Assembly: GCA_023410715.1 (NCBI GenBank)
Contig: JAEYPN010000030.1
Span: forward strand, 48,806 to 112,805
Direction of reading: 5' to 3'
Length of the DNA stretch: 64,000 nt
DNA from: Bacillota bacterium
GTDB taxonomy: Bacteria > Bacillota_I > Bacilli_A > Izemoplasmatales > UBA1188
Shown: positions 3,919-26,301 of the stretch, piece by piece
How positions within the stretch are numbered: the first letter of the stretch is position 1
Layout of the letters: each line of letters opens with the position of its first letter
Notes under the pieces: model-generated
Told to the model about the DNA's origin: nothing
What the model saw: only the letters and a program-made list of their open reading frames with translations
Database searches by the model: none
Made by a program: the position numbers and the translations under genes

Positions 3919-3950
3919 AAAGACATTAAATTTTAATTAATGTCTTTTTT
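3917..3950. terminator. Bidirectional rho-independent terminator shared by the convergent GH18 and pepT genes
   Basis: AAAAGACATTAA ... TTAATGTCTTTT inverted repeat with A/T runs on both sides. It overlaps the last codons of pepT. Confidence 0.7.
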
Positions 3951-5147
3951 AACTAGTTCAACAATATTTTTAAGAATCTCTACTGTTTTATTCATTTGAT
4001 TAATAGATTGAAATTCATAAACCCCATGGAAGTTCGCACCACCAACACCAATATTAGGAGTAAGAACTCCTTCATATGTTAAGCGTGCACCATCTGTTCC
4101 CCCACGAATTGGTAGAGCAACTGGATTTAATCCCGCTTTCCTAATAGCTTCAAATGCAATATCAATAATTTCTGGACGTTTTAAAATATGTTCTTTCATA
4201 TTATAGTAACTGTCCTTAATTTCTAAACTTATAATTTCATAACCATATTTTTCATTTAAATAAAGGGCAATACGTTTAAAGTCTTCTTTTTGTTTATTAA
4301 ATAACTTTTTATCATGATTACGAATAATGTATTCAAGTTCAGCATATTCGCATTTACCAACAATTTCTGTTAAATGATTAAATCCTTCATATCCTTCAGT
4401 GAACGCAGGATTTAAAAATTCAGGAAGAAGTGAATGAAATTCCATCCCAACAAGTGATGCATTAATCATTTTACCTTTAGCACTACCTGGATGAATGCTT
4501 TTACCAGTAATTTTTACTTTCGCACTAGCAGCGTTAAAGTTTTCATATTCAAATTCATTAGAAAATCCACCATCAACAGTATAAGCAAAATCAACTTTAA
4601 AATTATCATAATTAAAGTGATCAACACCAGCACCAATTTCTTCATCTGGGGTAAAGCAAACATAAACATCACCATGTTTGACATCATTAGTTGTTAGATA
4701 TTCAAGTAGCGACATGATTTCTGCTATACCAGCTTTATTATCTGAACCTAGTAAAGTATTACCATCAGTTACAATTAAATCATCACCAATGACATAATTT
4801 AAAGCATCAAAGCTTTCAGGATTCATTTTTCTTTTGTCGTTTAAAATAATTTCTTCACCTTGATAATTTTTAATAATACGTGGGTTAACATTCTTTCCAC
4901 TTGCATCATGTGATGTATCCATATGAGCTAAAAATCCTATCTTATAAGCATTAGCTACATTTCCTTTTACCTTAGTATAAACATAACCATATTCATCTAA
5001 AGTTGCTTCTAAACCAAGTGTTTCTAATTCTTCAACTAGGTATTTAGCAAGTATTAATTCTTTAGGGTTTGATGGAGTAGTTTGACTATTTGGGTCACTT
5101 GTCGTTTCAAACTTAATATAATTTAAAAATCTTTCATATGCCTTCAT
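3933..5147 (-). CDS. pepT: Peptidase T (tripeptide aminopeptidase, M20B)
   Basis: The N-terminus MKAYERFLNYIKFETTSDPNS, the FLAHMDTS motif and the GSDNKAG, TPDEEIG and GGTDGA motifs are typical of PepT. The start was moved from 5168 to the ATG at 5147, which sits behind a GAGG RBS. Confidence 0.9.
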   Translation of the reverse strand: MKAYERFLNYIKFETTSDPNSQTTPSNPKELILAKYLVEELETLGLEATLDEYGYVYTKVKGNVANAYKIGFLAHMDTSHDASGKNVNPRIIKNYQGEEIILNDKRKMNPESFDALNYVIGDDLIVTDGNTLLGSDNKAGIAEIMSLLEYLTTNDVKHGDVYVCFTPDEEIGAGVDHFNYDNFKVDFAYTVDGGFSNEFEYENFNAASAKVKITGKSIHPGSAKGKMINASLVGMEFHSLLPEFLNPAFTEGYEGFNHLTEIVGKCEYAELEYIIRNHDKKLFNKQKEDFKRIALYLNEKYGYEIISLEIKDSYYNMKEHILKRPEIIDIAFEAIRKAGLNPVALPIRGGTDGARLTYEGVLTPNIGVGGANFHGVYEFQSINQMNKTVEILKNIVELVKKDIN

Positions 5148-5289
5148 TTTTATACGCCTCACAATCAATTAAAATTATATGCTAGTTAAAAAAAATATGC
5201 AACATAATTGCTTAAAAACATATAATTAGATATATTATTATTGTATAACATTTTTGTGGTTTTATATGTTAAAATTATCTAAAAAACTC

Positions 5290-5317
5290 TTTACATAAAA
5301 TATAATTATGATATAAT
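5290..5317 (+). promoter_or_regulatory. Sigma-A-type promoter of riboswitch operon 1
   Basis: TTTACA (5290-5295), 16 nt spacer, extended -10 TGaTATAAT (TATAAT 5312-5317). This places the TSS at about the 5' end of the aptamer. Confidence 0.6.
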
Positions 5318-5319
5318 AC

Positions 5320-5402
5320 TAATGTAATAAAAAGGCAAACTTACCGAAAGATAAGGACGCAAAGCTATAGGGCCTTTAAATAGGTAGCCAGTTACTATTA
5401 TC
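5320..5402 (+). promoter_or_regulatory. c-di-GMP-I (GEMM-I) riboswitch aptamer, copy 1
   Basis: The core GGCAAAC-(CTTACC GAAA GATAAG)-GACGCAAAGC-TATAGGGCC...AGGTAGCC matches the GEMM-I consensus seen in Vc2 (GGCAAACC...GAAA...GGACGCAAAGCC...GGCC...GGUAGGUAGC). P2 is capped by a GNRA (GAAA) loop. Flanking complementary segments at 5320-5327 and 5392-5400 can form P1. Confidence 0.85.
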
Positions 5403-5423
5403 TTTAGATAATAGTTTTTTTTA
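5394..5423 (+). terminator. Riboswitch expression-platform terminator, copy 1
   Basis: ACTATTATC-ttta-GATAATAGT hairpin followed by a T-run. Its 5' arm overlaps the 3' strand of the putative P1. Confidence 0.8.
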
Positions 5424-5500
5424 TTTCTGCGTTAAATTAATAACATAAAAATGAGAAAAACCCCCAATCTAAGTATCAAAACTAATTAGGAGGTGACTTT

Positions 5501-6955
5501 ATGAAAAATAAAAAACAGAAAACATTAAGATTAATCTTAATTTCTTTTGCTTTCATTTCATTAGTCACTTCTTTTTATTTTTTATCTTATACATATGCCT
5601 GGTTATCAGGTAGCGGTGAAGAAAGTAATAATTTTGTTTTTGATAAATTAAATGTGGAAGTTAAAGCAAATTCATTGCATGTAAGCATAATAAAGTTAAA
5701 TGATTTAGTTTATGTTGATTTTGATGATTATTATAAATTTGATGGCGAAAAACGCGTTGAGACTGAAACTTATTTAAATATTAATGAAATTGCGACTTCA
5801 GTAACCATTAATATTAAAAATATTAGTAACGTTACATCAAGAACTTATATTTCGCAGATTAAAACAGTTAGTGGAACAACCATAAGAAATGAAGGCGTAA
5901 ATGAATTAATTTATGTTTTTGCAAGTAAACAATACATCCGTTCATTTTATCAAGATGGTAGAGTCGATAATTCAATTTACGATTATACTGAAAATATCTG
6001 GTATATAGATCAACCTTTAAGAAACGGTATTTTAGGTGAAGAAGATAAAGTAAATGGTGAATGGGTTTTAGATCCTAATCAACCAGTTTATGACATCTTA
6101 ACTGATGAGTGGTATATTGATCAAGCAAAACCAGATGGCATTTTAGGTGAAGAAGATAAGATGGATGGTAGCTGGGTTTTAAGTGATATTCAAGGAGATA
6201 ATGTTATAAATTCAATCTTTGATGAAGAGACTGGATATTGGTACATTGACCAAGCCGTAAGAAATGGACGTTTAGGTGAAGAAGATAAAGTAAATGGTGA
6301 GTGGGTTTTAGATACAAATACTTTTCATATATATAATGAAGAAACTAATAAATGGTATTTGGACTTAGATACACCAGATGGCATTTTGGATGACATTGAT
6401 AAAATAGATGGAGTTTTTGTAAGAAATTATGACATTCATGTTGTATATGATGCTGCTCGTGATACATTTTATGATGATCAACCAGTTAGAAATGGTGTCT
6501 TAGATGATTATGATAAGGTGAATGGTGCATGGGTAAAAGCTTTAGAACAGGATGGCACTACTCCTTATTCAATAAACTTTAATGGTATCTGGTATATAGA
6601 TCAACCTTTATATAACTATACATTGGGAATTGAAGATAGAGTTCAGGTTAATGGTAATTACCGTAGTATTCTTGAAACAATTTTAGCAAGTAATTATAAA
6701 GGGGAAACTTTAAAAGAAAAAATTGCTGCATATAATACTCAGTATTTAAAAGAAATTTATGAACAGCAATTATTAAGTAAAAATCAAGAAATTTCGATTG
6801 AAGTCGCTATATGGGGAGATTATAATAATTTATCACCTATGCAAAAAGAATATTATTTGAGTTCTGATATAAGTTATAATTTATTGCTAGAAATTAAAGC
6901 GATTCAAAAAGAAAATATAAATCCTAATTATGAAACGGATGGTGACTTGAGATGA
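5501..6955 (+). CDS. Secreted repeat protein with a SipW/TasA-type signal peptide and six ~40-aa WY(I/L)DQ...LG(D/E)EDKVNG-W repeats
   Basis: AGGAGGTGA RBS. The N-terminus is basic then hydrophobic, ending in YTYAWLSGSGEESNNFVFDKLNVEV, which follows the TasA-like pattern. Six tandem repeats span aa 151-386. The stop overlaps the next start (ATGA). Confidence 0.6.
   Translation: MKNKKQKTLRLILISFAFISLVTSFYFLSYTYAWLSGSGEESNNFVFDKLNVEVKANSLHVSIIKLNDLVYVDFDDYYKFDGEKRVETETYLNINEIATSVTINIKNISNVTSRTYISQIKTVSGTTIRNEGVNELIYVFASKQYIRSFYQDGRVDNSIYDYTENIWYIDQPLRNGILGEEDKVNGEWVLDPNQPVYDILTDEWYIDQAKPDGILGEEDKMDGSWVLSDIQGDNVINSIFDEETGYWYIDQAVRNGRLGEEDKVNGEWVLDTNTFHIYNEETNKWYLDLDTPDGILDDIDKIDGVFVRNYDIHVVYDAARDTFYDDQPVRNGVLDDYDKVNGAWVKALEQDGTTPYSINFNGIWYIDQPLYNYTLGIEDRVQVNGNYRSILETILASNYKGETLKEKIAAYNTQYLKEIYEQQLLSKNQEISIEVAIWGDYNNLSPMQKEYYLSSDISYNLLLEIKAIQKENINPNYETDGDLR
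5951..6658 (+). repeat. Six tandem copies of an unassigned ~40-aa coding repeat
   Basis: The repeat consensus is roughly QDG-x-x-x-x-SIYD-x-x-T-x-x-WY(I/L)DQP-x-x-NG(I/V)LG(D/E)EDKVNG-x-WVL. Units are 37-43 aa. Confidence 0.85.
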
Positions 6956-7665
6956 CAAAAAAAATCTTAGTCGCGATTATATCGTTAGCATCCGTAGTGT
7001 TAATTGCTGGTTTTACTTTTGCTTGGTTTATAGTTGAAGCTAACAAAAAGGTTGAAATTAAACCAGGATCATTCACGATTGGCGTTAATATTTATCTAGA
7101 ATATGAAGAAAATGAACAAAACAAAACATTAACTTTAGAAAATATTAAAAGTAATTCAAGCTTAAAAGAATTATACTTTGATGAAAAAAGGGATGCCATC
7201 ATTCTTGATGGTAGTGATGAAACAAAAATAAATTATGTTGGCAACTTACGCGTTAAACTAAAAATAAAAAATGAAATTACTGCTCGTTATCGTGTAAAAA
7301 TTATAGATGAATGGCATGTTAGACGCGAATATAAACTTGATGGAAAAGTTAATGATACCGCTGTTGACCATGAGTTCTCTGAATATAGATTTACCCCATT
7401 TCACATTTTCGAAAGATCAGGAGAAAATTATACGTTTTCTTCAACTGATGGATATATTTATTCTAATAAAATTTTAAATAAGGGTGTTAATGTTAATGAA
7501 ATAGACTTTATTAGCGGCGCAGAAAAGTATCCTACTAAAAATAATTATTTATTTCGTGAAACATGTTATGTTTATTTAAAAGTTAAATTAGAAGTAGTTC
7601 AGTTAAACCGTTACACACAAATATGGAATATCGGAAGTATTCCTGTAAATGATTTAATTTTATAA
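6952..7665 (+). CDS. TasA/camelysin-like small secreted protein (SipW-type signal peptide)
   Basis: 237 aa. The N-terminus MTKKILVAIISLASVVLIAGFTFAWFIVEANKKVEIKPGSFTIGV resembles the B. subtilis TasA leader (...GGGTWAAFND...FASGTLDL). It is translationally coupled to the upstream gene. Confidence 0.55.
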   Translation: MTKKILVAIISLASVVLIAGFTFAWFIVEANKKVEIKPGSFTIGVNIYLEYEENEQNKTLTLENIKSNSSLKELYFDEKRDAIILDGSDETKINYVGNLRVKLKIKNEITARYRVKIIDEWHVRREYKLDGKVNDTAVDHEFSEYRFTPFHIFERSGENYTFSSTDGYIYSNKILNKGVNVNEIDFISGAEKYPTKNNYLFRETCYVYLKVKLEVVQLNRYTQIWNIGSIPVNDLIL

Positions 7666-7682
7666 CTAGGAGGTGAATTTCC

Positions 7683-10600
7683 ATGACCAGAAAAATAAAA
7701 AACGTTATTAAAAAAACGATGGTTTTAGTTTTATCTATTTTAACATCGTTTTTTATTACTTTACAAATTTCTGAAACAAGCAATGTTAAAAAAGTATATG
7801 GTGATGGATATTCAGGTGATTTATATAATCCAAGCTATGGTTCATCATTCATGAACATTGATCCAAGTGTCGCTAACCCATCTAACTATGTAAGTTTTAG
7901 CGAATTTATGGAAGTTACTTATGGGGAAACACAATTTGTTAATGGTAAGATTGTAATAACCAGTCCTGGTATTTTTACAGATGAAATCATCACAAATGAG
8001 GAACAAGTGGTACTTGATCAGTATTCACAAAAAAAAATTGTGATTGGTTCAGCAGATGAGTTATATTATTTTTCATATTTATGCCATATGCAATATAAGA
8101 ATAATAATAGTAATGGTAATATAAATATTCCACGTAATTATTATATGAGCTTATATTATGTGCTTGGCGATGATATTGATTACGTTGATGCCTCACGTTA
8201 TATGCGTTTATTTATCCCTGTTGGAGACTCTGTATCAAAGTTTACGGGAACATTTGATGGCCAAGGATTTACCATTACTAATTTATTTTTAAAACCAATA
8301 GAGTCATCAGATGTTTACGAAGAGTCATATGGAGGACTTGAATATTATTCATTTTTCTCTGAAACAAGTAGTAACGCAATAATAAAGGATTTTGGTTTAA
8401 TCAATCCAACAATTATTCAAACAATAGCTTTTAATCAGATGTTCTATACATCATATGTAGTCGGAAGAAATTATGGTTTAGTTGATCATGTTTATGTTAT
8501 TGATGATAGAGGCAACTCTTCAGGCATTTCTGCTGAAGGTGGCTTTTTCATTTCTGGGTTAGTTTCAAAAAATTATGGAACATTTACTAATGCATACTAT
8601 TCAAGCAGATTAATATCATCTACTTCAGTTACAGAAAAAACTGGTTCAAATCCGATTATTATTGATAACTTTGGTTCAATGTCTCATGTATATTTTGATA
8701 GAAGCATCTTGAATGAAGAATTTACTGTTTGTTCATCAAATAATGCATGTGATGTAACAAATGGGTATATTATTGATGCGACAGTAAGCAATTTTGATCC
8801 TTCAACAATTGTATATAATAATACGTTAATTGGTTTGTCAACTAGTCAGTTCCAAAATGAAACATATTTTAAATCAGATAACTGGTTTAATAATACATCA
8901 TATGGTACTAGTGCTCAAATGAGGTTACATGATACTTATCCAATACTAAAAGGATTTTATTATAATTCAACATATGATGCCTATGAAATAACAGATGCGA
9001 CAGACTTAGTATATATGATTAGTATCTTTTCTAAAGCTTCATATTATCGTAATCAAAAATACATTTTAGTCAATAATCTCGATATGGATCAAATTGGACC
9101 TAAAGCTTATAAGGGCGGCGAAACAGCATTTAGTGGTGTTTTAACATCATTACCGATTAAAATAAATGAAACACAATATATCACTAATCGTGGTCAAAAT
9201 TATAATTATCCATACTATGCGATTTTTAATTTAAAGATCAATGTTGGTTCTGCATTTGGTAATATTTATTCATACGGATTATTTGCATATTTATCAGGTA
9301 AAATTGAAAACATTGCGATTGTTAATGCTGAGATAAGTCCTTTAGATGCAAGCGCAAATGATTTTAACTATTCAATTGGTATCGTTGCAGGAAAATTACT
9401 TAATGGACGTATAAGTAATGTACATGTTTCGGGAAATATTACTTTAAAAACTAAAGCATCAACAAATGCTATTGGCAAGATTTCTGTTGGAGGTCTTGTT
9501 GGTCAAGGTTCAGGGATGATCATTAATTCATCAGCTAGCGGTATTATAAATGGAGAAGTCCATGAAGCTAATAACTACATGAACTCATCATCGATTGGTG
9601 GTTTAATTGGTTTATCTGATAATATTATAGTGACAGGATCACGTAGCGTTATTAATATTTCTGGTATATCATTTACAAGCGCGAATGCTATAACGCAAAA
9701 CATTACAACTTATGTTGGTGGACTTATTGGTACTGGTACAACAAGTGATTTTAACACTTCACATAATGATGGTTCAATTACTATTAATGAAAATGGTTTT
9801 TATAATGGTAATTTATATGTTGGTGGTATTATTGGTAAATTAACTCAAGCAAATGCCATAATTAGTGAAATTACTAATCGAGGTAAGATTACTGTAAACT
9901 TTACTAATTTTGGGACAAAAACATACCTGATGACCACAAGAATCAGTGGAGTAATGAGTGTTCAATCAGCATTACGTAATCCGGAGTTTTACGGGGTTGG
10001 TAATACTGGTAACATTGAAATAAAAAACAAAAATATATCATCAAGTGAATTTACAAACACTAACGCAAGCATTGATGTAAAGGTGGCTGGTGTTATTAAT
10101 GCAAATTCAACTCATATTATTTCTAAGGGGCTACATAACAGTGGCAACATTACTGGTGATCTTGCAATTATTAGTGGAGTTACTGGAGTAATAAGTGCAG
10201 AAAATAGCACATCAACAGTTTATACTGACTTATCTAAATCATACAATTCAGGTAATTTGACCTTAACAACATCTAATGTAATTACTCATCATGATATATT
10301 TGTTTCGGGAATTGCCTTTGGAAAATATATGGTTTTAGATAATTTACGAAATACAGGAAATATTAGTATCAAGATAAGCCATAGTTCAACACTTAGCTTA
10401 AATGCATCAGGAAGTTATAAGACATTTAAAGTGGTTGGTAATTTTGAAGAAGTTTCATTAAACAGAAATATTGCCAATTGTTATAATGAAGGTAAGATTA
10501 ATCTTATAACTGAAAATATAACTGATAATTCTTTTAAGTTTAACACTTATGTCAGTGGAATTTGTTATAAAAATGACAATAGAGCTATTTATTCTGATGC

Positions 10601-13600
10601 ATCAGAAGAATCAATAACTGCAAATATTAGTAAAAGCGGTTCACTGGATAATGTTTTAAACACTGGCGAAATATATGTGAATACTTATATTTATGGAATG
10701 TGTGTTGCCTCAGGAATTACATCTATGAATGCATCATTAATTACTAACGCCTTTAATATTGCCAATATATATGTAAGAAATGAAGGGTTTGCGCCAAGTG
10801 GTGATTGGGGTGGTAGTTTATTTGAAACAGCCGCATGTGGTATTTCATATTTACTACTTAATCGTTATGCTCAAATCAAAGATTCAGCTAACGCTGGTTC
10901 GATTACGGCAATTGAGGAAGTTAATACAGCTACTAATATTTTAGCCTCAGGAATTGCTGGAAGAAATGACGTATCAGAAACTGGTGCGACAATAAGTAAT
11001 ACATCTAATAATCACTTCGCAAAAGTTATGTTTGCGATTAACTATGGTCAAATTTTAGCTTGGAATAATGCTGAAGCATCACCAACTGCGCCAGAACAAT
11101 TAACGCAAGGGTGGTTTGGACTTTGGAGTGGTGGTTCTAACTATGAAGCTAAGACTAAAGCTACAGGAATTTTAGCATCAGGGGTTATGAGTACTGTAAA
11201 TGTAATAAATTATGGTAATATTTATTCACCAACACTTGCGAGTGGAATATTTGGGTATATAAATGTTAACTTATTTACGGTTTCTGCTAACCAAACATAT
11301 GTTGCAAATACCATTAACTATGGTAATATTAGAAGGATTATTGCAAAACCTTCAACAACAACAAGTACAGGTAGCTTTACTGCCGGTAATACAACTTATT
11401 ATTTTACGCCTTCTTCAAGTAATTTAAATAATTATTTCTTAGGAGGAGCAATTGGAAATATTCGTACAAAAGAAAATATTTCTGGCTTATCTGCTTTTTT
11501 AGAAATATTTTCAACAGAATCTTTTAATATTAATTTTAGTTATCTAATAAATTTTGATCAGTTGATTGATATGGTTGGTTTCAATATTAAGAGTGCTTCA
11601 TTTAGTGCGGTTAATGCTTTAATTACAACTAATAGTAATGATACATCAGCTGAACCATTTGAATCTTTAAAACCTTATGCATTTTCAGATGCACCTGCAA
11701 CACAAACAACGAACATGGGAATTTTTTCAAGTGACTTCCCATTAAAAAATCCACCAGATACACCTGAGTTTAAAGGAATTGAAACCAATGAACTTATTCC
11801 TGAATATATTTCATTTATTCCTTATAATAAGGTTAATGGTAAAATTAGAGATATTGTTTTTGGAACTAATGTTTCAGAACAAAATCAAAATATTTATGGA
11901 ATTTATGCTTTAGCTTCAACCCAAGGTGTAGTTAACGGACAGTACATTCCTGAAAATTTTAATTGGTCAGGAATTGATCCAGAAATAGGTGGTGAAGCTG
12001 ACTCAAGCTGGCGAGGAGAAGAAGGTAATAATTTAACTATAATTTTTTCAGGTAAGATGAATCAATTATCTCAATCTGTTTCAACAGCAATCTTTGATTT
12101 AGAATTAGTATCGACAACTGATAGTACGATTAAACTTAAAAAGCCAGTTATTGACCTTAAAAATAGTACACTTACCTATTATGTATCAAAAAACTCAAAG
12201 GAATATTTAACGGGATGGACTTCAGGAGAACTAGAACAAGTTATTTTGGGTAAGCAAAAAACTAAAACTGAATATGTATTAGCTTCAGCAAATAACTATA
12301 ACTTTGGTGGTGTAAGCAATATTACTAATATTCGTATCTTACATGGAACCGATATAATAAAAGAAGACACAACATATTATAAAAATCCAGTAACTGTGGC
12401 AGAAACAAAAATAAAGAATGAAAGTAACACTTTAGGCCGGTTAATTTTGAAAAATTCAGGTACCAATAATTATGTTCCCGTTGGTGATTATTTACTAAGT
12501 GGATCATCATACGTTGATATTTATGATAAATATTATGCTGGTACTTTAGACGTAGAGTTTATTTCTCATACTCCTTATACCATAAGTGGTTTCCTTCAAA
12601 CACATTATTTTTACCAATCAAAAGGAAGTATTATTCAAAAAGGCTTAGATCAATCGATTGCTAAAAACTTTGACATTCTTCAACCAACAAGTGTTACGAC
12701 ATGGTTTAGTTCGTCAACTTATCAATTAGCGTTTACAAGTGGTACAGTTGTTAATAAAACAAATGGTCCTTATTCTGCAAAAGATAGTAATTTTTATGTT
12801 TATGCCGGAGCAAGAACTGATTATGCAAAAACATATGTGCTAGTACAATATACATATTTGGATTTATCAGATCCAGAATCTGAGGTAATCTTTGTTCCTA
12901 ATGAAAAATCTGCATATAAAACTAACTATAATGATGGCTATAAGCTTGCATATGGGGCAAATTTAGTCCAAATGGATTATAATAAAGAAACATATTCAGA
13001 TTGGAAAGACAACCTAGCTTATGTACCTCGTTATTCAGGAGAATTTAAGAGCTTAACAAATGGTGAAAATTTAGGGAAAATTACTGTTATGGCACAGGAT
13101 GGTGAAACAACTTCAACATATACGATTCAAATTGAATATGTTGAAGCCCAAAGTATAAAGGATTTAGATGCTGTTTATGTTAATAATGTCGCATTATCAC
13201 CTGATTGGGTATTAGCTGGTAATCAGACTGGTACTACTCCAAATTCTATATATGATCCGGTTACTAAAAAATGGTACATAGATCAAAAGAATGGTTATAA
13301 TGGTATATTAGGCAATGAAGATAAAGTAAATAATGAATGGGTAGAAATACCAGATCAAAAAATAACTAATCATTGGATATTTGATAGTACAACGAATAAG
13401 TATTATGTTGATCAACCTATTTATAATGGAACGCTTGGAAATGAGGATAAAGTTGATGGATCTTTTGTTTTAGCAGTTCCACAAAGTAGTACAACAGAAC
13501 ATGCAATCTATGATTTACAAACGGGTAACTATTATCTTGATCAACCAGTTTATAATAATATTTTAGGTGTAGAAGATATGGTAACGAATAGATGGACTAA

Positions 13601-16600
13601 TGCATCTAAACAAGATGGTAGTACTTTAAACTCCATTTATGATTCAAAAACAAAAACCTGGTATTTGGATCAACCTGTTTCATATAATAATATCTTAGGT
13701 GATGAGGACAAAATAAATGGTAGTTGGGTTTTAGCAGATAAACAAGACGGTACAACTTTATACTCAATTTATGATTCAACTACAACCAAATGGTATTTAG
13801 ATCAACCGGTTTCATATAATGGTATTCTTGATGAAGAAGATAAGAGCTATCAATATGTTTTAGCTGATGTAAAAAATTATATTTATAGCAGTTCAAATGG
13901 TAAATGGTATTTAGATCAACCTGTTTCATATGATGGAGTTCTTGATGAAAAAGATCGTGTATTCCAATGGGTTATAGCTGATGCTCAGGATGGTTCAACT
14001 CCACACTCAATTTATGATTCAGCAACTGAAATCTATTATCTTGATCAGCCAACTACAAATGGTAAATTAGGTGATGAAGATCAAGTAAATGGTAGTTGGG
14101 TCTTAGCTGACTATCAAGATGGAACTTCATTAAATACAATTTATGATAATAAGACTAAAAAATACTATGTTGATCAAATTGTTTCATATAATGGGGTTTT
14201 AGGTGATGAAGATAAAAAAGTTGTAGTAACAAGTTCTACATCAAGTGAAATCTATTATGAGATTCCAAGTTCAATCGGAAAAGTTAATTATAAACCAGGA
14301 ACAAATCACTTAGGATCGATTAGACTGTCATTTAAGGTATATAATTTTAGAGATAAAACAGATTTAAGTGATATAATAACCTTATATCGTTATGATTCAA
14401 GAACTGGACAAAAAGTATTAGTTCCTCTAATGAATGGAGATATTATTAATTACACATTAATTGGTGGAGTCGTAACAAATGATAATAAAAATTTTGATAA
14501 TTTAAATAAATCATGGAGTTATGGAACACTTGATTTTGAATTATCATTATCACAGGATTTACAAGGCGGACTTTATTATGTCTATGTGTCACTTGGGACA
14601 GATGAATCTACTGATTACTATATCGCGTTTACGAAGATGAAGTCACCTGAACCAATTGTCACTGAGCTTGAATATGATGGAAATTCAATAATTCCTGAAT
14701 ATGAAAATCTTGATGATGAAACAAATTCTAACCGTTTTATCACATCATATACTAGTTACATTGAATTTGGCAAACATTATTTAGAAGGTGTAACTGATAA
14801 ATCAATGTATTTTGATGATTTAAGAACAATTGTTGATGTGTATTACAATGAAATAACCGGTAATAATTTACCTGATTATTTAACAAAACTAAGAATATCG
14901 CAATATTCAACAATTGAAAGCATTACATTTTCACTTGATTCATCATCAACTGCTTCACATCATAGATATATAATCACTTATACAATCTTGGCTGAAGATG
15001 GACTTACTAGAGGAACATTTATTCATTATATTGAAGAAATGAATGTTGATGTAAAAATTAAAGAAACATTTATTAATGGTAATACTGTTGATGCTCAAAA
15101 TAAAGTCTCATTTGCAAGAGAAGAAGCCCCTTTAATACATGTTGAATATGGTTTAACAGATATTTATAATTGGCAATACTTTTCATGCACAAGTAGTAAT
15201 CAAACCTTAGAAGATTCAATGTATTATATCAATGTTGACGAGTCATTTGGTTTTGAGATTATATTTGTTGAAGAACTAGACCCAGGTGATTACACGTTTA
15301 CCTTAAAATATAGTGCTTTAAATGTGTTAATATATGAAGGAAATCCAAGTATTACTAGTGATGATATTTATGTATCATATAATATTGTCTTTGAAATTTT
15401 AGAGGTAACAAAAAAGAAAAATGAAAATAGTTATCTTGAAGCTGTTAAGTTTGTAACAGATGTTATTTTTACCGGGTTAAATACAATTATTGATAATAAT
15501 CTTATTACCCCTGCAACTTATCAAAATTATTTAGTTAATGAGCAAGCGCGAAAAATTGTTTCATTACCAAGCGGAATATATTATAATGAATACAAAGCAA
15601 ATAATAATCGCTTCTGGGTAATTGGGCAGGTTCAAAAGACTAATCTTGATAGTTATATGCCAACCTTTACATTACCAATTGGCGCATTAGTTTACCGCGT
15701 AGAAATTGGATATCTTGAATCAGCAAATCAAGATGGTACAACCGCGCATTCAATTTATGATAGTGTAACTGAAAAATATTATTTAGATCAACCATTACCT
15801 AATTTAGTTTTAGGTGATGAGGACAAAGTTAATGGCGCTTGGATAATTGCATCTTCTCAGGATGGCACAACACCTAATTCCATTTATGACTTTGATACAA
15901 ATAAATGGTATATTGATCAAGCTGTTTATGATGGAAAACTTGGTAAAGAAGATAGGATTAAAGAATATCTAAAGGGTAATGGAACTATTGACTCAGAAGA
16001 TTTAAGATTTGATTTTAATCCACTTGACGAAGATAACTTTAATTATGTGACATATCGTGTGTTTGCAGAAGCATATATAGAAGGTGATGAAACATATGGT
16101 AATATGTACACCGATTATATCGTTTCTGTACAAGATGTTTCATTTAATGTTAAATTTGATATTGTTGTTGAAAAAGATGATTCATTTAATGTTAATCTTA
16201 ATAGCGAGCAACTTGTCGTTCATATTTCATTTGTTAACTATGAATCTGGTTATGTAATTGATAAGAATGGCAACTCTGTTTATGTACCATATAAGGATGA
16301 TACCCACATTAGAACAGCAATGTCAATGTTTTCATATTTAACAAGTAAAGACAATAAACAAGTTTTTATCAATAATCAGTTTTCAACAACTCAAGCTGGT
16401 TATTATAGAATAGATATTGAATTACCAGATAATTTAACATATGAATTGAGTTTTGCTTCATCAACAATTGTTGTTGATGAGGATAATAAAGGATTTATGG
16501 TTCAAGCATCCGTGATTCCAAAAAAATACCTGCTTAAAATAATCATCAAAGCAAATGGAAATCAAAGCGTTGATTGGGGACAACATCAGGAGACAATGGA

Positions 16601-16616
16601 TAAATATCCATTATAA
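7683..16616 (+). CDS. Giant (2977 aa) secreted adhesin-like protein with a GLUG-motif beta-helix region and ten copies of the ~40-aa repeat
   Basis: AGGAGGTGA RBS and an N-terminal signal/TM segment. FTGTFDGQGFTITNL is followed by about 15 periodic G-G-(L/I)-(I/V)-G type turns (VGGLVGQGSG, IGGLIGLSD, VGGLIGTGT, VGGIIGKLT ...), which is typical of GLUG-domain adhesins. Repeat blocks lie at aa 1847-2179 and 2683-2760. No LPxTG or other obvious C-terminal anchor is visible. Confidence 0.8.
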   Translation: MTRKIKNVIKKTMVLVLSILTSFFITLQISETSNVKKVYGDGYSGDLYNPSYGSSFMNIDPSVANPSNYVSFSEFMEVTYGETQFVNGKIVITSPGIFTDEIITNEEQVVLDQYSQKKIVIGSADELYYFSYLCHMQYKNNNSNGNINIPRNYYMSLYYVLGDDIDYVDASRYMRLFIPVGDSVSKFTGTFDGQGFTITNLFLKPIESSDVYEESYGGLEYYSFFSETSSNAIIKDFGLINPTIIQTIAFNQMFYTSYVVGRNYGLVDHVYVIDDRGNSSGISAEGGFFISGLVSKNYGTFTNAYYSSRLISSTSVTEKTGSNPIIIDNFGSMSHVYFDRSILNEEFTVCSSNNACDVTNGYIIDATVSNFDPSTIVYNNTLIGLSTSQFQNETYFKSDNWFNNTSYGTSAQMRLHDTYPILKGFYYNSTYDAYEITDATDLVYMISIFSKASYYRNQKYILVNNLDMDQIGPKAYKGGETAFSGVLTSLPIKINETQYITNRGQNYNYPYYAIFNLKINVGSAFGNIYSYGLFAYLSGKIENIAIVNAEISPLDASANDFNYSIGIVAGKLLNGRISNVHVSGNITLKTKASTNAIGKISVGGLVGQGSGMIINSSASGIINGEVHEANNYMNSSSIGGLIGLSDNIIVTGSRSVINISGISFTSANAITQNITTYVGGLIGTGTTSDFNTSHNDGSITINENGFYNGNLYVGGIIGKLTQANAIISEITNRGKITVNFTNFGTKTYLMTTRISGVMSVQSALRNPEFYGVGNTGNIEIKNKNISSSEFTNTNASIDVKVAGVINANSTHIISKGLHNSGNITGDLAIISGVTGVISAENSTSTVYTDLSKSYNSGNLTLTTSNVITHHDIFVSGIAFGKYMVLDNLRNTGNISIKISHSSTLSLNASGSYKTFKVVGNFEEVSLNRNIANCYNEGKINLITENITDNSFKFNTYVSGICYKNDNRAIYSDASEESITANISKSGSLDNVLNTGEIYVNTYIYGMCVASGITSMNASLITNAFNIANIYVRNEGFAPSGDWGGSLFETAACGISYLLLNRYAQIKDSANAGSITAIEEVNTATNILASGIAGRNDVSETGATISNTSNNHFAKVMFAINYGQILAWNNAEASPTAPEQLTQGWFGLWSGGSNYEAKTKATGILASGVMSTVNVINYGNIYSPTLASGIFGYINVNLFTVSANQTYVANTINYGNIRRIIAKPSTTTSTGSFTAGNTTYYFTPSSSNLNNYFLGGAIGNIRTKENISGLSAFLEIFSTESFNINFSYLINFDQLIDMVGFNIKSASFSAVNALITTNSNDTSAEPFESLKPYAFSDAPATQTTNMGIFSSDFPLKNPPDTPEFKGIETNELIPEYISFIPYNKVNGKIRDIVFGTNVSEQNQNIYGIYALASTQGVVNGQYIPENFNWSGIDPEIGGEADSSWRGEEGNNLTIIFSGKMNQLSQSVSTAIFDLELVSTTDSTIKLKKPVIDLKNSTLTYYVSKNSKEYLTGWTSGELEQVILGKQKTKTEYVLASANNYNFGGVSNITNIRILHGTDIIKEDTTYYKNPVTVAETKIKNESNTLGRLILKNSGTNNYVPVGDYLLSGSSYVDIYDKYYAGTLDVEFISHTPYTISGFLQTHYFYQSKGSIIQKGLDQSIAKNFDILQPTSVTTWFSSSTYQLAFTSGTVVNKTNGPYSAKDSNFYVYAGARTDYAKTYVLVQYTYLDLSDPESEVIFVPNEKSAYKTNYNDGYKLAYGANLVQMDYNKETYSDWKDNLAYVPRYSGEFKSLTNGENLGKITVMAQDGETTSTYTIQIEYVEAQSIKDLDAVYVNNVALSPDWVLAGNQTGTTPNSIYDPVTKKWYIDQKNGYNGILGNEDKVNNEWVEIPDQKITNHWIFDSTTNKYYVDQPIYNGTLGNEDKVDGSFVLAVPQSSTTEHAIYDLQTGNYYLDQPVYNNILGVEDMVTNRWTNASKQDGSTLNSIYDSKTKTWYLDQPVSYNNILGDEDKINGSWVLADKQDGTTLYSIYDSTTTKWYLDQPVSYNGILDEEDKSYQYVLADVKNYIYSSSNGKWYLDQPVSYDGVLDEKDRVFQWVIADAQDGSTPHSIYDSATEIYYLDQPTTNGKLGDEDQVNGSWVLADYQDGTSLNTIYDNKTKKYYVDQIVSYNGVLGDEDKKVVVTSSTSSEIYYEIPSSIGKVNYKPGTNHLGSIRLSFKVYNFRDKTDLSDIITLYRYDSRTGQKVLVPLMNGDIINYTLIGGVVTNDNKNFDNLNKSWSYGTLDFELSLSQDLQGGLYYVYVSLGTDESTDYYIAFTKMKSPEPIVTELEYDGNSIIPEYENLDDETNSNRFITSYTSYIEFGKHYLEGVTDKSMYFDDLRTIVDVYYNEITGNNLPDYLTKLRISQYSTIESITFSLDSSSTASHHRYIITYTILAEDGLTRGTFIHYIEEMNVDVKIKETFINGNTVDAQNKVSFAREEAPLIHVEYGLTDIYNWQYFSCTSSNQTLEDSMYYINVDESFGFEIIFVEELDPGDYTFTLKYSALNVLIYEGNPSITSDDIYVSYNIVFEILEVTKKKNENSYLEAVKFVTDVIFTGLNTIIDNNLITPATYQNYLVNEQARKIVSLPSGIYYNEYKANNNRFWVIGQVQKTNLDSYMPTFTLPIGALVYRVEIGYLESANQDGTTAHSIYDSVTEKYYLDQPLPNLVLGDEDKVNGAWIIASSQDGTTPNSIYDFDTNKWYIDQAVYDGKLGKEDRIKEYLKGNGTIDSEDLRFDFNPLDEDNFNYVTYRVFAEAYIEGDETYGNMYTDYIVSVQDVSFNVKFDIVVEKDDSFNVNLNSEQLVVHISFVNYESGYVIDKNGNSVYVPYKDDTHIRTAMSMFSYLTSKDNKQVFINNQFSTTQAGYYRIDIELPDNLTYELSFASSTIVVDEDNKGFMVQASVIPKKYLLKIIIKANGNQSVDWGQHQETMDKYPL
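13221..14219 (+). repeat. Eight tandem copies of the ~40-aa WY(L/I/V)DQ...LG(D/N)EDK repeat inside the giant adhesin
   Basis: An example unit is QDGTTLYSIYDSTTTKWYLDQPVSYNGILDEEDK. The family is the same as at 5951-6658. Confidence 0.85.
15729..15962 (+). repeat. Two further copies of the ~40-aa repeat near the C-terminal part of the giant adhesin
   Basis: QDGTTAHSIYDSVTEKYYLDQPLPNLVLGDEDKVNGAWIIASS followed by QDGTTPNSIYDFDTNKWYIDQAVYDGKLGKEDRI. Confidence 0.8.
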
Positions 16617-16643
16617 AGGAATCAAGTTACAAGGAGAAAGATT

Positions 16644-17285
16644 ATGAAGGGTTTAAAAAAACTTTTTAAAAGTAAGAAAGGTATCTTTGCTATATCACTA
16701 ATGTTACTTGCAGTAGTGTTAGTGAGTGCTGGCGGATTATGGGCTTGGTTTACGCAAGAAGGTACTCAGAGTACTTTTACGTTTACTGCTGGTCAAGTTA
16801 AATATGAACTAGGCAATATTCCAACAACTGATGGAAACTTTAAACTTCCTGGTGATCCAGTTATGGTTTATGCTTTTAGTCTAACAAACAAATCAAATAT
16901 TGATACGAATGTTAGAATAGAAGCAACATATAAGATTACACCAGCTATCGGATCTACAGCTCCTGAATTAACAGGTATAATCGGAATAGGGAACGTCCTG
17001 ATTACTAGAATAACTGATGGTTGGTTTATAAAGGATGGATATTATTACCTAGGAACATCTGGTTCTGAAACTACTTTAACTGCTGTATCTGATATAGTAA
17101 ATGGCACGATTGTTGTTGAAAACTTTGTCACAACAATGGTTATTAATGGTGATGTAATTGGTAATGACTATATGGGTTCTACCCTCACGATTACATTTAA
17201 GTTTCAAGCCAAACAAGCAAATAATTTAACCTGGGAAGATTGTGCAACAAAAAATATTGATTTTACAACAGGTTTAGCAAAGTAA
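16644..17285 (+). CDS. TasA/camelysin-like fibre-subunit candidate (SipW-type signal peptide)
   Basis: 213 aa with a GGAGA RBS. The N-terminus ...LLAVVLVSAGGLWAWFTQEGTQSTFTFTAGQVKYEL is close to the TasA/CalY leader pattern. The body is Thr/Gly/Val-rich and looks beta-rich. A SipW-type peptidase gene starts 4 nt downstream. Confidence 0.65.
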   Translation: MKGLKKLFKSKKGIFAISLMLLAVVLVSAGGLWAWFTQEGTQSTFTFTAGQVKYELGNIPTTDGNFKLPGDPVMVYAFSLTNKSNIDTNVRIEATYKITPAIGSTAPELTGIIGIGNVLITRITDGWFIKDGYYYLGTSGSETTLTAVSDIVNGTIVVENFVTTMVINGDVIGNDYMGSTLTITFKFQAKQANNLTWEDCATKNIDFTTGLAK

Positions 17286-17289
17286 GAAT

Positions 17290-17787
17290 ATGATAAAAAA
17301 AATAGGTAAGATTATAACTAACGTTTTGATTATTGCAATTCTCTTTTTTTCGTTATTTACAATTATAATGGGATTAATTGGCTTTAAATGGGATGTTGTA
17401 TTATCTGGCTCTATGGAACCAGATATTCATGTTGGAAGCCTAAATTACCGGAAATATGTGTCATTTGAATCACTTAATATTGATGATGACGTTGTCTATA
17501 AATCTAAATCTAGTGGTGATTTAATCACCCATAGAATCATTGATATTGATTACGAAAAAAAGATAGTAGTTACTCAGGGTATTAATGGTAAGGATAGCGG
17601 GGCAGCAAAAGAAGAAGTTGATTATACAAGAATTGTCGGCAAGTCATATTTTTCGATTCCTTTAATTGGATACGTTGCATTTTATTTTAAAAAATATTTT
17701 GTGGCTATAATTCTATTTGTAATTGCAGCCTTATTAATATATCAAGCTATTAAATTATTTAAAACACCAACAAAAGAAGAAAACTAA
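17290..17787 (+). CDS. SipW-type (ER/archaeal-type, S26B) signal peptidase I, paralogue 1
   Basis: 165 aa with an N-terminal TM. It has the canonical VLSGSMEP catalytic Ser box, an ITHRI His box and a C-terminal TM. The usual KGDNN box reads TQGINGKD, so the Asp is absent. Confidence 0.75.
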   Translation: MIKKIGKIITNVLIIAILFFSLFTIIMGLIGFKWDVVLSGSMEPDIHVGSLNYRKYVSFESLNIDDDVVYKSKSSGDLITHRIIDIDYEKKIVVTQGINGKDSGAAKEEVDYTRIVGKSYFSIPLIGYVAFYFKKYFVAIILFVIAALLIYQAIKLFKTPTKEEN

Positions 17788-17788
17788 A

Positions 17789-20167
17789 ATGAAAGGAGTC
17801 TATGTTTTTATGAGAACAAAAAATAATAAACCACTTTTTGCATTATTTTTAGCTTTTGCATTTGGGCTCCTTTTAATTATTGGTTTCTTTTTAATTTTAG
17901 TTATGAATACTAATGATAAAAAATTAGGAGAAATGCTAAGAATTAATACTGATCAAAAATATACAATATTTTTTGATGATATTAATTTTAAAAGAGAAAA
18001 ATACATTGAAAATTATTTAACACTAAGTGATGGAATATTATCTAGAACAGAAGAACTATCAAATAAAAAATATTTAATAATTTCTGGTAAGCTAGCTTAT
18101 TTATATGATGATGGGATTGATGTTTATTATTACTTTGATAATCAAGTATTTGAAGTATTTGATGACGAAGAATTAAATAATATTTACTTGATTAATGATC
18201 AAGGGGAAATCTTATGTTCATATAAGGAAGTTAACTTTAGTTATTATTTTATCGAACTAAGAAAATATATAAGTGAATCTCGTACTAAGGAAATATTTAA
18301 CGCTATTTTAAAAACTAGACATGGTAGTGATGAAATCAGCGTAAATGGTAAAAAGGGCTTCATTATCTATAAATATGTTGATGAATTTCAAGCTAATATG
18401 ATTTTTGAATATCACAATATTAGAAGTGCAAAGTATGATGTACAAATTGTAACTTATACACTTGTATTTATTGTAATTATTTCTATCGTTTTACTTTGTA
18501 TTTACTTTATTTTGTATAAGATGATTATTAAGAAAACTAATGATCTTGATATTGCAAGACGAAATTCACAAAATCCTTATACATATATCATTAAGACTAA
18601 TAAAAGTGGCGTTTTTACTTTTCAAAACCGGAACTTTAGAACTGACTTTCATGGTAAATATAAAAAGTTATCAGACTTTGAATTAGATATTAATACAGAT
18701 ATTGATAGTATCGTTAAAAATCAAATACCATTTACAGTTAAATTAATAGATAACAGAAGTAGAGAACATTACCTACATTTTATTGTAGTTGATAATGTAA
18801 AAGAACTTGTTTTTATTGGTGAGAATTTATCGAAGATGCATAATAAAACTGGTATAGAGTCTTATCATAAAGTTGATGAATTAACTCAAGTTCCAAACAA
18901 AGAAGCATTTATTTCAGATATTGATGAACATATTATTGATAATAAAAAGGTTGAAAAAGCCGGTGTATTATTATTAAATATCAAGAAATTTAATAACATC
19001 AATAATTTATTTGGTCGTTATTTTGGCGACAAGATAATGATGGAATTTGTTAAGATGCTTGTTGAAATAATTGATGATAAAGGAAAAATATATCGTATAG
19101 AGGGCGATAATTACGCGATATTAATTAATCCTTTAGAAAATATTGATGAATGTAAGAAAATGGCCAGTTTAATAATTAAACGTTTTGAAAAACCAATAAA
19201 TTTCTTAAATAATGAAGTAGTTTTAGGTTGTAAAATTGGTGGTTATCTTATTATCAAAGAAAAGTACACCCCAGCCATTACAGCTTTAGAAATTATTGAT
19301 AAAGTATCCTTAGCGTTAAAAGAAGCTAAAAATGATAAGAACAATGATTTTATAATGTATGATAGTAACATTGAAACGATAAATCAAAAAGAGATTCAAA
19401 TGTTAGATGATATGGGCAAAGCCTTAAAAAAAGATGAGTTTGTGATGTTCTATCAAGCACAATATAATACAAAAATAAAAAAAATAGTAGGTTTTGAAGC
19501 TTTAATTAGATGGAATAACCCACTTTACAGAAACGTATCACCACAAAAATACATAAAATTAGCAGAGAAAACTGGAATGATAGTACCTCTAGGTATGCAT
19601 ATTGTTAAAGAGGTTTTAAGGTATGCTAAAAAAATAGTCAATGATATTGTCCATGTATCATTGAACGTTTCGCCAATTCAACTAATTCAGTCAGGATTTG
19701 TTAATGATTTTTTAGCGGAATATAATAAATATAGTTTTAAACCTGGCCAAATTGCTATTGAAATTACTGAATCATTTTTGATGGAAACATTACAAGAAGT
19801 GATTCAAAAATTAAGAATTATAAAAGAAAATGGTATAAAAATTTATATGGATGACTTTGGAACAGGTTATTCATCACTTCTATACCTAAAAGATTTACCA
19901 ATTGATGTAGTTAAACTTGATCAGCAATTTATTTCATTAATTGAAGTCGATGAGTCTTCAAAGCTTATTGTCAAAAAGATAATTGAAGTTGCAAAAGGAT
20001 TAAATTTGGATGTAGTAGCTGAAGGGGTTGAGTCTGAATCCCAAAGCAAGATTTTACTTGAAAATGGCTGTGATATTATCCAGGGATATTTAATCTCTCG
20101 GCCAATACCAGAGCTTGATGCTACAGCTTTGCTTAACAACATCAATAAACAAAAAGGAGTTGATTAA
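17789..20167 (+). CDS. Membrane sensor protein with degenerate GGDEF and intact EAL domains (predicted c-di-GMP phosphodiesterase)
   Basis: 792 aa with two TM segments bracketing a ~190-aa extracytoplasmic region. The GGDEF site reads R-I-E-G-D-N-Y. The EAL domain has all canonical boxes: GFEALIRW, LNVSP, IEITES, MDDFGTGYSS, VKLD, AEGVES and IQGY. The start could instead be ATG 17810. Confidence 0.85.
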   Translation: MKGVYVFMRTKNNKPLFALFLAFAFGLLLIIGFFLILVMNTNDKKLGEMLRINTDQKYTIFFDDINFKREKYIENYLTLSDGILSRTEELSNKKYLIISGKLAYLYDDGIDVYYYFDNQVFEVFDDEELNNIYLINDQGEILCSYKEVNFSYYFIELRKYISESRTKEIFNAILKTRHGSDEISVNGKKGFIIYKYVDEFQANMIFEYHNIRSAKYDVQIVTYTLVFIVIISIVLLCIYFILYKMIIKKTNDLDIARRNSQNPYTYIIKTNKSGVFTFQNRNFRTDFHGKYKKLSDFELDINTDIDSIVKNQIPFTVKLIDNRSREHYLHFIVVDNVKELVFIGENLSKMHNKTGIESYHKVDELTQVPNKEAFISDIDEHIIDNKKVEKAGVLLLNIKKFNNINNLFGRYFGDKIMMEFVKMLVEIIDDKGKIYRIEGDNYAILINPLENIDECKKMASLIIKRFEKPINFLNNEVVLGCKIGGYLIIKEKYTPAITALEIIDKVSLALKEAKNDKNNDFIMYDSNIETINQKEIQMLDDMGKALKKDEFVMFYQAQYNTKIKKIVGFEALIRWNNPLYRNVSPQKYIKLAEKTGMIVPLGMHIVKEVLRYAKKIVNDIVHVSLNVSPIQLIQSGFVNDFLAEYNKYSFKPGQIAIEITESFLMETLQEVIQKLRIIKENGIKIYMDDFGTGYSSLLYLKDLPIDVVKLDQQFISLIEVDESSKLIVKKIIEVAKGLNLDVVAEGVESESQSKILLENGCDIIQGYLISRPIPELDATALLNNINKQKGVD

Positions 20168-20172
20168 ACAAC

Positions 20173-21627: not shown

Positions 21628-21666
21628 TTTTTTTTCTAACAAAATGGAAAAAATTATAAATATTAC

Positions 21667-21695
21667 TTGACAATTTTCTATATATATAATAGAAT
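21667..21695 (+). promoter_or_regulatory. Sigma-A-type promoter of riboswitch operon 2
   Basis: TTGACA (21667-21672), 17 nt spacer, TAGAAT (21690-21695). A TATAAT at 21685-21690 would leave only a 12-nt spacer. Confidence 0.55.
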
Positions 21696-21701
21696 GTTTT
21701 T

Positions 21702-21781
21702 GTAATATAAATGGCAAACTTGTTGAAAAACAAGGACGCAAAGCTATAGGGCCTATACATAGGCAGCCAGTTGCTATTATC
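21702..21781 (+). promoter_or_regulatory. c-di-GMP-I (GEMM-I) riboswitch aptamer, copy 2
   Basis: GGCAAAC-(CTTGTT GAAA AACAAG)-GACGCAAAGCTATAGGGCC...AGGCAGCCAGTTGCTATTATC. It shares long identical stretches with copy 1, such as GGACGCAAAGCTATAGGGCCT. Confidence 0.85.
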
Positions 21782-21803
21782 TCTTTCGGATAATAGTTTT
21801 TTA
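21774..21803 (+). terminator. Riboswitch expression-platform terminator, copy 2
   Basis: CTATTATC-tctttcg-GATAATAG hairpin followed by TTTTTT. The stem sequence matches copy 1. Confidence 0.8.
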
Positions 21804-21847
21804 TTTTAAAAAGCTATTATTAACTGAATGAAAGGGGGGTAATGGCC

Positions 21848-22525: not shown

Positions 22526-22556
22526 GAAAATTATAAATAAATTAAGGAGAAGAGAA

Positions 22557-23885: not shown

Positions 23886-23922
23886 CATTTTAATATAATT
23901 TTTAATAACTAAATATTTATAT

Positions 23923-23953
23923 AAGACCACAAAGTTTTTTGTGGTCTTATTTT
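23923..23953 (+). terminator. Rho-independent terminator inside the locus, after the 442-aa subunit gene
   Basis: AAGACCACAAA-gtttt-TTTGTGGTCTT perfect hairpin followed by a T-rich tail. Confidence 0.8.
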
Positions 23954-23960
23954 AGAAATA

Positions 23961-23969
23961 TGGTATAAT
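23961..23969 (+). promoter_or_regulatory. Extended -10 promoter element (TGgTATAAT)
   Basis: TG at 23961-62 and TATAAT at 23964-69, about 35-45 nt upstream of the next ORF. No good -35 element is seen. Confidence 0.45.
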
Positions 23970-24003
23970 TTATACATATATATCAAAATTTAGCAAAGGT
24001 TGT

Positions 24004-24729: not shown

Positions 24730-24740
24730 GAGGTGGGTTT

Positions 24741-26285: not shown

Positions 26286-26301
26286 GATTGCAGGTGAAAA
26301 A

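Follow-up and report, generated by a model that had tools for sequence, protein, structure and literature searches.

A predicted class I cyclic di-GMP ON riboswitch precedes a TasA-like fibre and adhesin operon in a Bacillota bacterium

Results

We analysed a 64,000-nucleotide stretch of contig JAEYPN010000030.1 from a Bacillota bacterium (Izemoplasmatales), hereafter called the window, with positions counted from its first letter. On the plus strand, a promoter, an aptamer of the cyclic di-GMP (c-di-GMP)-I clan and an intrinsic terminator lie upstream of a unit of seven genes, which encode signal-peptide proteins, a giant adhesin-like protein, a TasA-like protein, a SipW-type signal peptidase and two GGDEF-EAL proteins (Table 1). 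A second, paralogous aptamer (copy 2) follows this unit. From its aptamer, its terminator and the overlap of the two, the leader at 5324-5423 is likely to be a class I c-di-GMP riboswitch (GEMM-I) of the canonical type, working as a transcriptional ON switch.

The aptamers were located with the Rfam covariance models of clan CL00126, in which RF01051 (c-di-GMP-I, GEMM-I) is the family and RF03167 (c-di-GMP-I-GGC) a variant model. Copy 1 was found at 5325-5400 on the plus strand (RF03167, 59.5 bits, E = 1.6e-11, gathering score 59) and copy 2 at 21704-21779 (RF03167, 62.2 bits). Each copy had one extra match within the clan above that model's own gathering score, masked by the clan filter and presumably to RF01051 (gathering score 35). 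A first-pass annotation had recognized copy 1 as GEMM-I from its core motifs. All of these motifs (GGCAAAC, a GAAA-capped P2, GACGCAAAGC and GGGCC...GGTAGCC) are present, and the score of copy 1 stands at or above the gathering threshold (59.5 versus 59). The first hairpin of GEMM consists of a 2-bp and a 6-bp stem with a conserved three-nucleotide internal loop between them and a GNRA cap (PMC1950547), and P2 of copy 1 has the same build (GC-AAA-CUUACC-GAAA-GAUAAG-GAC-GC, 5335-5360). The linker between the two hairpins, which is nearly invariably AAA in GEMM (PMC1950547), is AAA here as well (A5361-A5363). The junction between P1 and P2 (J1/2) has five or six nucleotides in other instances of the aptamer too. 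The aptamer is in a 5' regulatory position, between a promoter with an 11/12 match and the ATG at 5501.

We take G5334, A5361 and C5395 to be the equivalents of G20, A47 and C92 of the Vc2 aptamer, on the strength of what is known of the Vc2 structure and of the Rfam alignments. Despite the variant label, these three nucleotides make up what is predicted to be a ligand pocket of the canonical c-di-GMP-I type, which places the element outside the GGC variant. The meaning of the label 'GGC' was deduced from two Rfam consensus lines: RF03167 reads GACGC-G-AA and RF01051 reads GACGC-A-AA, and both copies in the window read GACGC-A-AAGC. The position equivalent to A47, which is G in the variant, is therefore A in both copies (A5361 in copy 1). 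RF03167, the best-scoring model for both copies, resembles them in its short P3 without a tetraloop receptor and differs from them in the G that follows GACGC; it is preferred because this short, receptor-less P3 is common to the model and the window copies. In other genomes, aptamers whose core is identical carry either label, RF01051 or RF03167, almost interchangeably, and at one locus (L004, 6826-7174) three near-identical tandem copies are split between the two. The preference of both copies for RF03167 might be taken to indicate a variant class with altered ligand specificity, which senses something other than c-di-GMP. However, the discriminating base is that of RF01051, identical cores are labelled almost at random, the common short P3 accounts for the preference, and G5334 is G where variants that bind cyclic AMP-GMP (c-AMP-GMP) typically have A; we consider altered specificity very unlikely. 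For annotation in general, competition within the Rfam clan is a pitfall, as it puts canonical A47-type aptamers with a short P3 under RF03167.

P1 was assigned from the family alignment and from the promoter. The family-consistent helix is predicted to pair 5324-5329 (GUAAUA) with 5396-5401 (UAUUAU), leaving AAAAG as J1/2 and AC as J3/1. Its first nucleotide, G5324, coincides with the transcription start expected from the geometry of a strong promoter. Promoter matches of this quality (11/12) are scarce: the two strands of 5430-21700 together have just three, and one of them is the promoter of copy 2. The same spacing recurs in L157, a metagenomic locus orthologous to that of copy 2, which was the only riboswitch among the matches listed from a metagenome scan with AGCCAGTTNCTATTATC that gave at least 120 stretches. 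In copy 1, copy 2 (TTGACA-17-TAGAAT) and L157 (TTGACA-16-TAAAAT), the -10 element is followed by six nucleotides and then by GUAAUA, while the six nucleotides themselves differ (ACTAAT, GTTTTT and GTGCTT, respectively).

The first-pass annotation had drawn P1 differently, as an 8-bp helix with one bulge between 5320-5327 and 5392-5400. This helix can be drawn on paper (about -7.3 kcal/mol for the whole fold), and unconstrained minimum free energy (MFE) folds of truncated transcripts use its inner part, GUAA(U) with (G)UUAC. However, it pairs the C92-equivalent C5395 and A5394 of J3/1, and it takes U5392 and U5393 from the P3 assigned by Rfam. The outer half of this helix (5320-5323) precedes the predicted start and lacks conservation: copy 2 has TTTT at these positions and L157 has GCTT, which as UUUU and GCUU are unable to pair. 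An ON switch exactly as first drawn thus has little to recommend it, and we regard that P1 as quite improbable. More generally, when the transcription start and the family consensus are disregarded, P1 may be drawn in a wrong register even though the regulatory logic is right.

The terminator follows directly. Its DNA reads ACTATTATC (5394-5402)-TTTA-GATAATAGT (5407-5415)-T8, with the RNA arms ACUAUUAUC and GAUAAUAGU; the hairpin has two G-C pairs and an energy of -7.3 to -7.8 kcal/mol. Five comparable sites, each a hairpin with a U tract, occur in the window on both strands, against 0.17 expected from first-order Markov shuffles, and another of the five (3921-3945) is situated at a gene end between two convergent genes. 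A standard terminator scan requires at least three G-C pairs and so makes no call at 5394-5423, which was not counted as absence. The 5' arm includes both nucleotides of J3/1 (A5394 and C5395) and all six nucleotides of the P1 3' strand, and the 3' arm repeats the UAAUA of the P1 5' strand, so that both compete for UAUUA. The nucleotide sharing between P1 and the terminator that had been proposed at first therefore exists: 5394-5401 are common to the aptamer and the terminator, the two structures are mutually exclusive, and the overlap holds in either P1 register. As a terminator of the upstream gene the hairpin was ruled out, since pepT (3933-5168), a minus-strand gene, is read in the direction that leads away from it.

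We then compared the two states by nearest-neighbour folding. With P2 and P3 formed, the terminator state and the P1-closed aptamer of copy 1 have energies of -14.7 and -6.4 kcal/mol, respectively, and those of copy 2 have -21.9 and -12.0 kcal/mol. When P2 and P3 were enforced without ligand, P1 was never part of the MFE structure, and the terminator appeared once the transcript reached 5411. Unconstrained MFE folds misfold the aptamer core and were used for the terminator alone. Termination would thus be the default without ligand, and P1 would be held by the ligand-stabilized junction alone, which therefore predicts an ON switch. Accordingly, the earlier reasoning that closure of the aptamer excludes the terminator, and that c-di-GMP should turn expression on, survives the corrected P1 register, as judged by overlap, folding and conservation.

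The opposite direction also has precedents. The functional class I riboswitches of Clostridioides difficile are all OFF switches (PMC6366702), and many instances with the same core have a U-run right after P1 or a Shine-Dalgarno sequence inside P1, as would suit a ligand that promotes termination or occludes the ribosome-binding site. Here, however, it is not P1 itself that precedes the U tract but a separate hairpin, built in part from the P1 3' strand. The ribosome-binding site (5488-5493) is about 90 nucleotides downstream of the aptamer and has no complementarity to it. As for anti-terminators, none stronger than 5 bp was apparent, and the leading candidate, 5350-5354 (GAUAA, in the P2 3' strand) with 5398-5402, was rejected, as it has 5 bp and would need P2 unfolded. 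On these grounds, an OFF switch or a translational mechanism is extremely improbable.

The design that underlies the predicted ON switch is conserved. P1 (GUAAUA/UAUUAU) is identical in copy 1, copy 2 and L157, and the terminator arms are nearly unchanged, the differences being one A-U to G.U change in L157 and a G.U in copy 2 at the pair formed by the J3/1 base. The inner stems of P2 differ with compensation (CUUACC/GAUAAG in copy 1, CUUGUU/AACAAG in copy 2 and GUAUAG/CUAUAC in L157), as does P3, including its length, and the terminator loops are unrelated (UUUA, UCUUUCG/CUUUC and UAAGCAUA, respectively).

Syntenic loci were found in metagenome-assembled genomes (MAGs) labelled Acholeplasmataceae or Bacilli (L003, L016, L037, L050 and L082), with 30-53% amino-acid identity to the window proteins and the gene order giant protein, EAL genes, riboswitch, MRLS protein, TasA-like protein, SipW, ATPase. 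In these MAGs, tandem arrays of two to four riboswitch units, each with its own terminator, precede the MRLS/TasA-like operon. In the Acholeplasmataceae-type units, P1 is AAUG/CAUU, and the terminator 3' arm, AAUGAU-GCUGGC, invades first P1 and afterwards P3. Both strands of P1 thus covary with the terminator 3' arm in a three-way pattern (P1 5' strand/P1 3' strand/terminator 3' arm), which is UAAUA/UAUUA/UAAUA in the window versus AAUG/CAUU/AAUG in the Acholeplasmataceae type.

Two further features were observed in passing. L037 has four c-di-GMP-I units in a row; a 2022 survey lists tandem doublets and triplets only. In L003, L016, L037, L050, L082, L013, L083 and L044, J3/1 has U at the C92-equivalent position (...AGUU-GU/AU-CAUU), with G20 and A47 kept. 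Such a G/A/U pocket could make a G.U wobble to the ligand or could have a shifted specificity.

The operon downstream of copy 1 has the extent that the first-pass annotation gave it, about 16 kb (5501-21627). Its content had been described as adhesin and fibre genes, which omits the two GGDEF-EAL genes at its end, one a probable phosphodiesterase. Within 5430-21700, a scan for hairpins with U tracts found no terminator-like site on the plus strand. By inspection, the product of 17789-20167 keeps EAL, EITE, DDFGTGYSS, KLD, EGVE and QGY, with a degenerate GGDEF (EGDNY), and the product of 20173-21627 is more degenerate (ESL, DDLGLEYAT). A GGDEF-EAL gene pair also precedes the riboswitch in L157, L016, L050 and L082. 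For the product of the first gene (5501-6955), no homologue besides itself was found among 5.8 billion proteins, nor were related loci found among genome contigs. A repeat of about 35 amino acids, WY(I/L)DQP..NG.LG.EDKVNG.WV, occurs in many copies in this product and in the 2977-aa protein (7683-16616).

Table 1. Features of the copy 1 leader, the predicted operon, copy 2 and the syntenic tandem arrays. Positions are those of the window, except in the last row, where they are those of the respective locus.
Feature	Position	Strand	Basis or remark
Sigma-70-type promoter: -35 TTTACA (5290-5295), 16-nucleotide spacer, extended -10 TGnTATAAT (5309-5317)	5290-5317	+	11/12 match with TG
Predicted transcription start G5324, first nucleotide of P1, 7 nucleotides past the -10 hexamer	5324	+	Expected from promoter geometry
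P1 5' strand GUAAUA	5324-5329	+	Complementary to 5396-5401 (G.U and 5 A-U/U-A); identical in copy 2 and L157; RF03167 register after a 1-nucleotide shift
J1/2 AAAAG, including G5334 (G20-equivalent, presumed ligand contact)	5330-5334	+	Rfam alignment
P2: GC/GC outer pairs, AAA/GAC internal loop, 6-bp inner stem (5340-5345/5350-5355), GAAA tetraloop (5346-5349)	5335-5360	+	Rfam alignment
J2/3 AA, including A5361 (A47-equivalent)	5361-5362	+	GGC variant has G here
P3, short, without the 11-nucleotide tetraloop receptor	5363-5393	+	Rfam alignment; all pairs canonical or G.U
Parts of P3	5363-5366/5390-5393, AUA bulge, 5370-5371/5388-5389, AG bulge, 5372-5374/5383-5385, loop 5375-5382	+	Rfam alignment
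J3/1 AC, including C5395 (C92-equivalent, presumed ligand contact)	5394-5395	+	Both bases double as the start of the terminator 5' arm
P1 3' strand UAUUAU, common to the terminator 5' arm (predicted switching sequence)	5396-5401	+	Overlap with 5394-5402
Intrinsic terminator: stem 5394-5402/5407-5415 (9 Watson-Crick pairs), loop UUUA (5403-5406), U8 (5416-5423)	5394-5423	+	Our own hairpin scan; folding
Ribosome-binding site AGGAGG (5488-5493) and ATG of the first gene (5501)	5488-5503	+
Predicted regulated seven-gene unit	5501-21627	+	Intergenic gaps from overlap to 27 nucleotides
Two signal-peptide proteins, TasA-type AW(F/L) motifs (...TYAWLS..., ...FTFAWF...)	5501-6955, 6952-7665	+
2977-aa adhesin-like protein with GLUG motif	7683-16616	+
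Camelysin/TasA-like protein	16644-17285	+	Peptidase_M73, E = 2.9e-7
SipW-type signal peptidase	17290-17787	+	TIGR02228, 72.5 bits
Two GGDEF(degenerate)-EAL proteins, last genes of the operon	17789-20167, 20173-21627	+	EAL, E = 1e-60 to 1e-63
Copy 2: promoter TTGACA-17-TAGAAT (21667-21695; 11/12 match), predicted start G21702, aptamer 21702-21780	21667-21803	+	62.2 bits
Copy 2 P1 and terminator	P1 21702-21707/21775-21780; terminator 21773-21782/21788-21797, then U6	+	Sequence comparison; folding
Tandem riboswitch units of the syntenic loci	L003 699-1020; L016 4675-4993; L037 3425-3876; L050 768-1088; L082 4271-4498

Discussion

In the mechanism that we propose, transcription would begin at about G5324, and P2 and P3 would fold first. 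If c-di-GMP is present, G5334, A5361 and C5395 would then bind it where the three helices meet, and this would lock the weak 6-bp P1. The locked P1 would sequester ACUAUUAU, otherwise the 5' arm of the terminator, and polymerase would pass the U8 tract into the 16-kb operon. Without ligand, P1 would be unstable, and the 3' arm, which carries the UAAUA of the P1 5' strand, would capture 5394-5402; the 9-bp hairpin and the U8 tract would form, and transcription would stop about 95-100 nucleotides from the start.

Several points speak against a working switch of this kind. P1 is very weak: it has six pairs (five A-U and one G.U), and its closure costs about +0.5 kcal/mol. The terminator state has an advantage of about 8 kcal/mol, and the distance from P1 to the terminator 3' arm is just six nucleotides; control would therefore have to be kinetic. 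Little time would be left for capture of the ligand, and the switch might leak or be off for the most part. In the 6-bp stem of P2, copy 1 has a C5344.A5351 mismatch adjoining the pair that closes the tetraloop, unlike copy 2 and L157, in which the P2 stems are perfect. The RF03167 score of copy 1 exceeds the gathering score of that model by just 0.5 bit. P3 is without a canonical receptor for the GAAA loop of P2 and has an AUA bulge at 5367-5369; the family criterion is that a GAAA tetraloop is usually paired with a receptor in the second hairpin, or that there are otherwise bulged A residues near the hairpin base. This receptor-less form with a short P3 is widespread, being present at more than 119 loci with the 20-mer of the aptamer. 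Finally, five of the 16 predicted c-di-GMP riboswitches of C. difficile are non-functional, in addition to the OFF direction of its functional class I members (PMC6366702), and a review states that the regulatory direction needs testing in each context (PMC6366702).

The main alternative to an ON switch builds on these points. It holds that the aptamer is decayed or binds too weakly and that the hairpin is a constitutive attenuator, barely or never relieved by c-di-GMP, as the mismatch in P2, the weakness of P1, the advantage of the terminator, the marginal score and the existence of non-functional predictions in C. difficile would all allow. By contrast, all three ligand-contact positions and the AAA linker are intact in copy 1. 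The P1/terminator design is kept in copy 2, with its perfect P2, and in L157, with compensatory changes in P2 and P3, which indicates selection. In addition, a permanent strong terminator in front of a 16-kb operon would silence the operon. Taken together, these considerations make a decayed aptamer unlikely, and we retain the c-di-GMP ON switch. The C5344.A5351 mismatch of copy 1 could reduce its affinity and give the two switches different thresholds.

The ON-type architecture of the element is ordinary for its family and has been known since 2007, and the knowledge of the GEMM-I mechanism is unchanged by it. Weinberg et al. (2007) described a terminator overlapping the 3' hairpin of GEMM in 78 of 322 instances and predicted ligand-induced expression (PMC1950547). 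The element shares with these instances (PMC1950547; RF01051) the aptamer consensus, a terminator 5' arm over the 3' side of the aptamer and the predicted direction. It differs from them in that the overlap is minimal, covering J3/1 and P1 and sparing the P3 strand, and in that P1 is at the predicted +1. Because the overlap is limited to J3/1 and P1, the terminator stem is short (9 bp with two G-C pairs). Among 133 instances with the 20-mer of the aptamer, a crude classifier flagged 31 as the overlapping-terminator type, about 25 of which look genuine; in 37 a U-run directly follows P1, and in many a Shine-Dalgarno sequence is next to or inside P1.

A parallel in function is Bc2 of Bacillus thuringiensis, which lies upstream of cap, a gene for a collagen adhesion protein, and whose ON switching was shown experimentally (PMC6366702). 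Both are class I transcriptional ON switches, here by prediction, of adhesin genes in low-GC Gram-positive bacteria. The window differs in its host, in the regulated gene and in a much larger operon with EAL genes. The pilM riboswitch of Geobacter metallireducens, a c-AMP-GMP (GEMM-Ib) member, has a homologous fold and is likewise an ON switch in which aptamer and terminator are mutually exclusive; its control is kinetic, and it stays competent to bind for about 1 s (PMC9262584). It differs in sensing c-AMP-GMP, in having A at the G20 position, where the window has G, and in an expression platform whose strand order was described as atypical. Cd1 (Cdi-1-3) of the C. difficile flgB operon is also a class I riboswitch with termination in the leader of a very long operon (23 kb) (PMC6366702). 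In contrast to the element, it is an OFF switch; its aptamer can form alongside the terminator, and the two compete with an anti-terminator, whereas the aptamer and terminator of the window compete directly.

A single point is modestly unusual, namely that the transcript predicted to be regulated carries genes for probable c-di-GMP phosphodiesterases; according to a review, c-di-GMP riboswitches seldom control phosphodiesterase genes (PMC6366702). An ON switch whose transcript ends in at least one catalytically competent EAL phosphodiesterase might constitute an RNA-based negative-feedback or pulse circuit combined with a two-threshold cascade, a possibility that we raise tentatively from gene order and domain content. 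In the feedback, high c-di-GMP would turn on the synthesis of fibres and, along with it, an enzyme that degrades c-di-GMP itself. In the cascade, transcripts that read through would meet copy 2, a second predicted ON switch with a better P2, because there is no terminator between the operon end (21627) and copy 2. Such a cascade, if true, would link two systems of TasA-like fibres, the closest syntenic relatives of this lineage being MAGs that carry the label Acholeplasmataceae. Induction of adhesive fibres by c-di-GMP agrees with the general role of this messenger (PMC6366702). The locus offers a testable annotation, namely a c-di-GMP-induced, SipW-dependent operon for TasA-like fibres and adhesins in an uncultured or poorly studied organism of 28% GC.

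Copy 2 lies upstream of a second cluster (21842-29266), which encodes TasA-type signal-peptide proteins (22557-23885 and 28053-28703) and SipW peptidases (24004-24729 and 28706-29266). With that of the first operon (17290-17787), three SipW-type paralogues occur within 12 kb, and at least five proteins of the window have TasA-type signal peptides with an AW(F/Y/L) motif. A search of the literature for a link between a c-di-GMP riboswitch, SipW and TasA found none. Elsewhere, aptamers with the same core lie near SipW homologues in L088, L096, L103, L108, L086, L071 and L051 (Alkaliphilus, Tissierella, Tepidanaerobacteraceae and Syntrophomonadaceae), and in the first four of these the aptamer immediately precedes a gene whose product has a TasA-type signal peptide. 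From these gene neighbourhoods, the association of the riboswitch with SipW/TasA-like fibre operons looks widespread.

The window also contains a T-box leader (37737-37940, 141.4 bits) and a ribosomal protein L21 leader (44416-44491, 41.5 bits), which, with a GC content of 28.1%, are consistent with a Bacillota-type genome.

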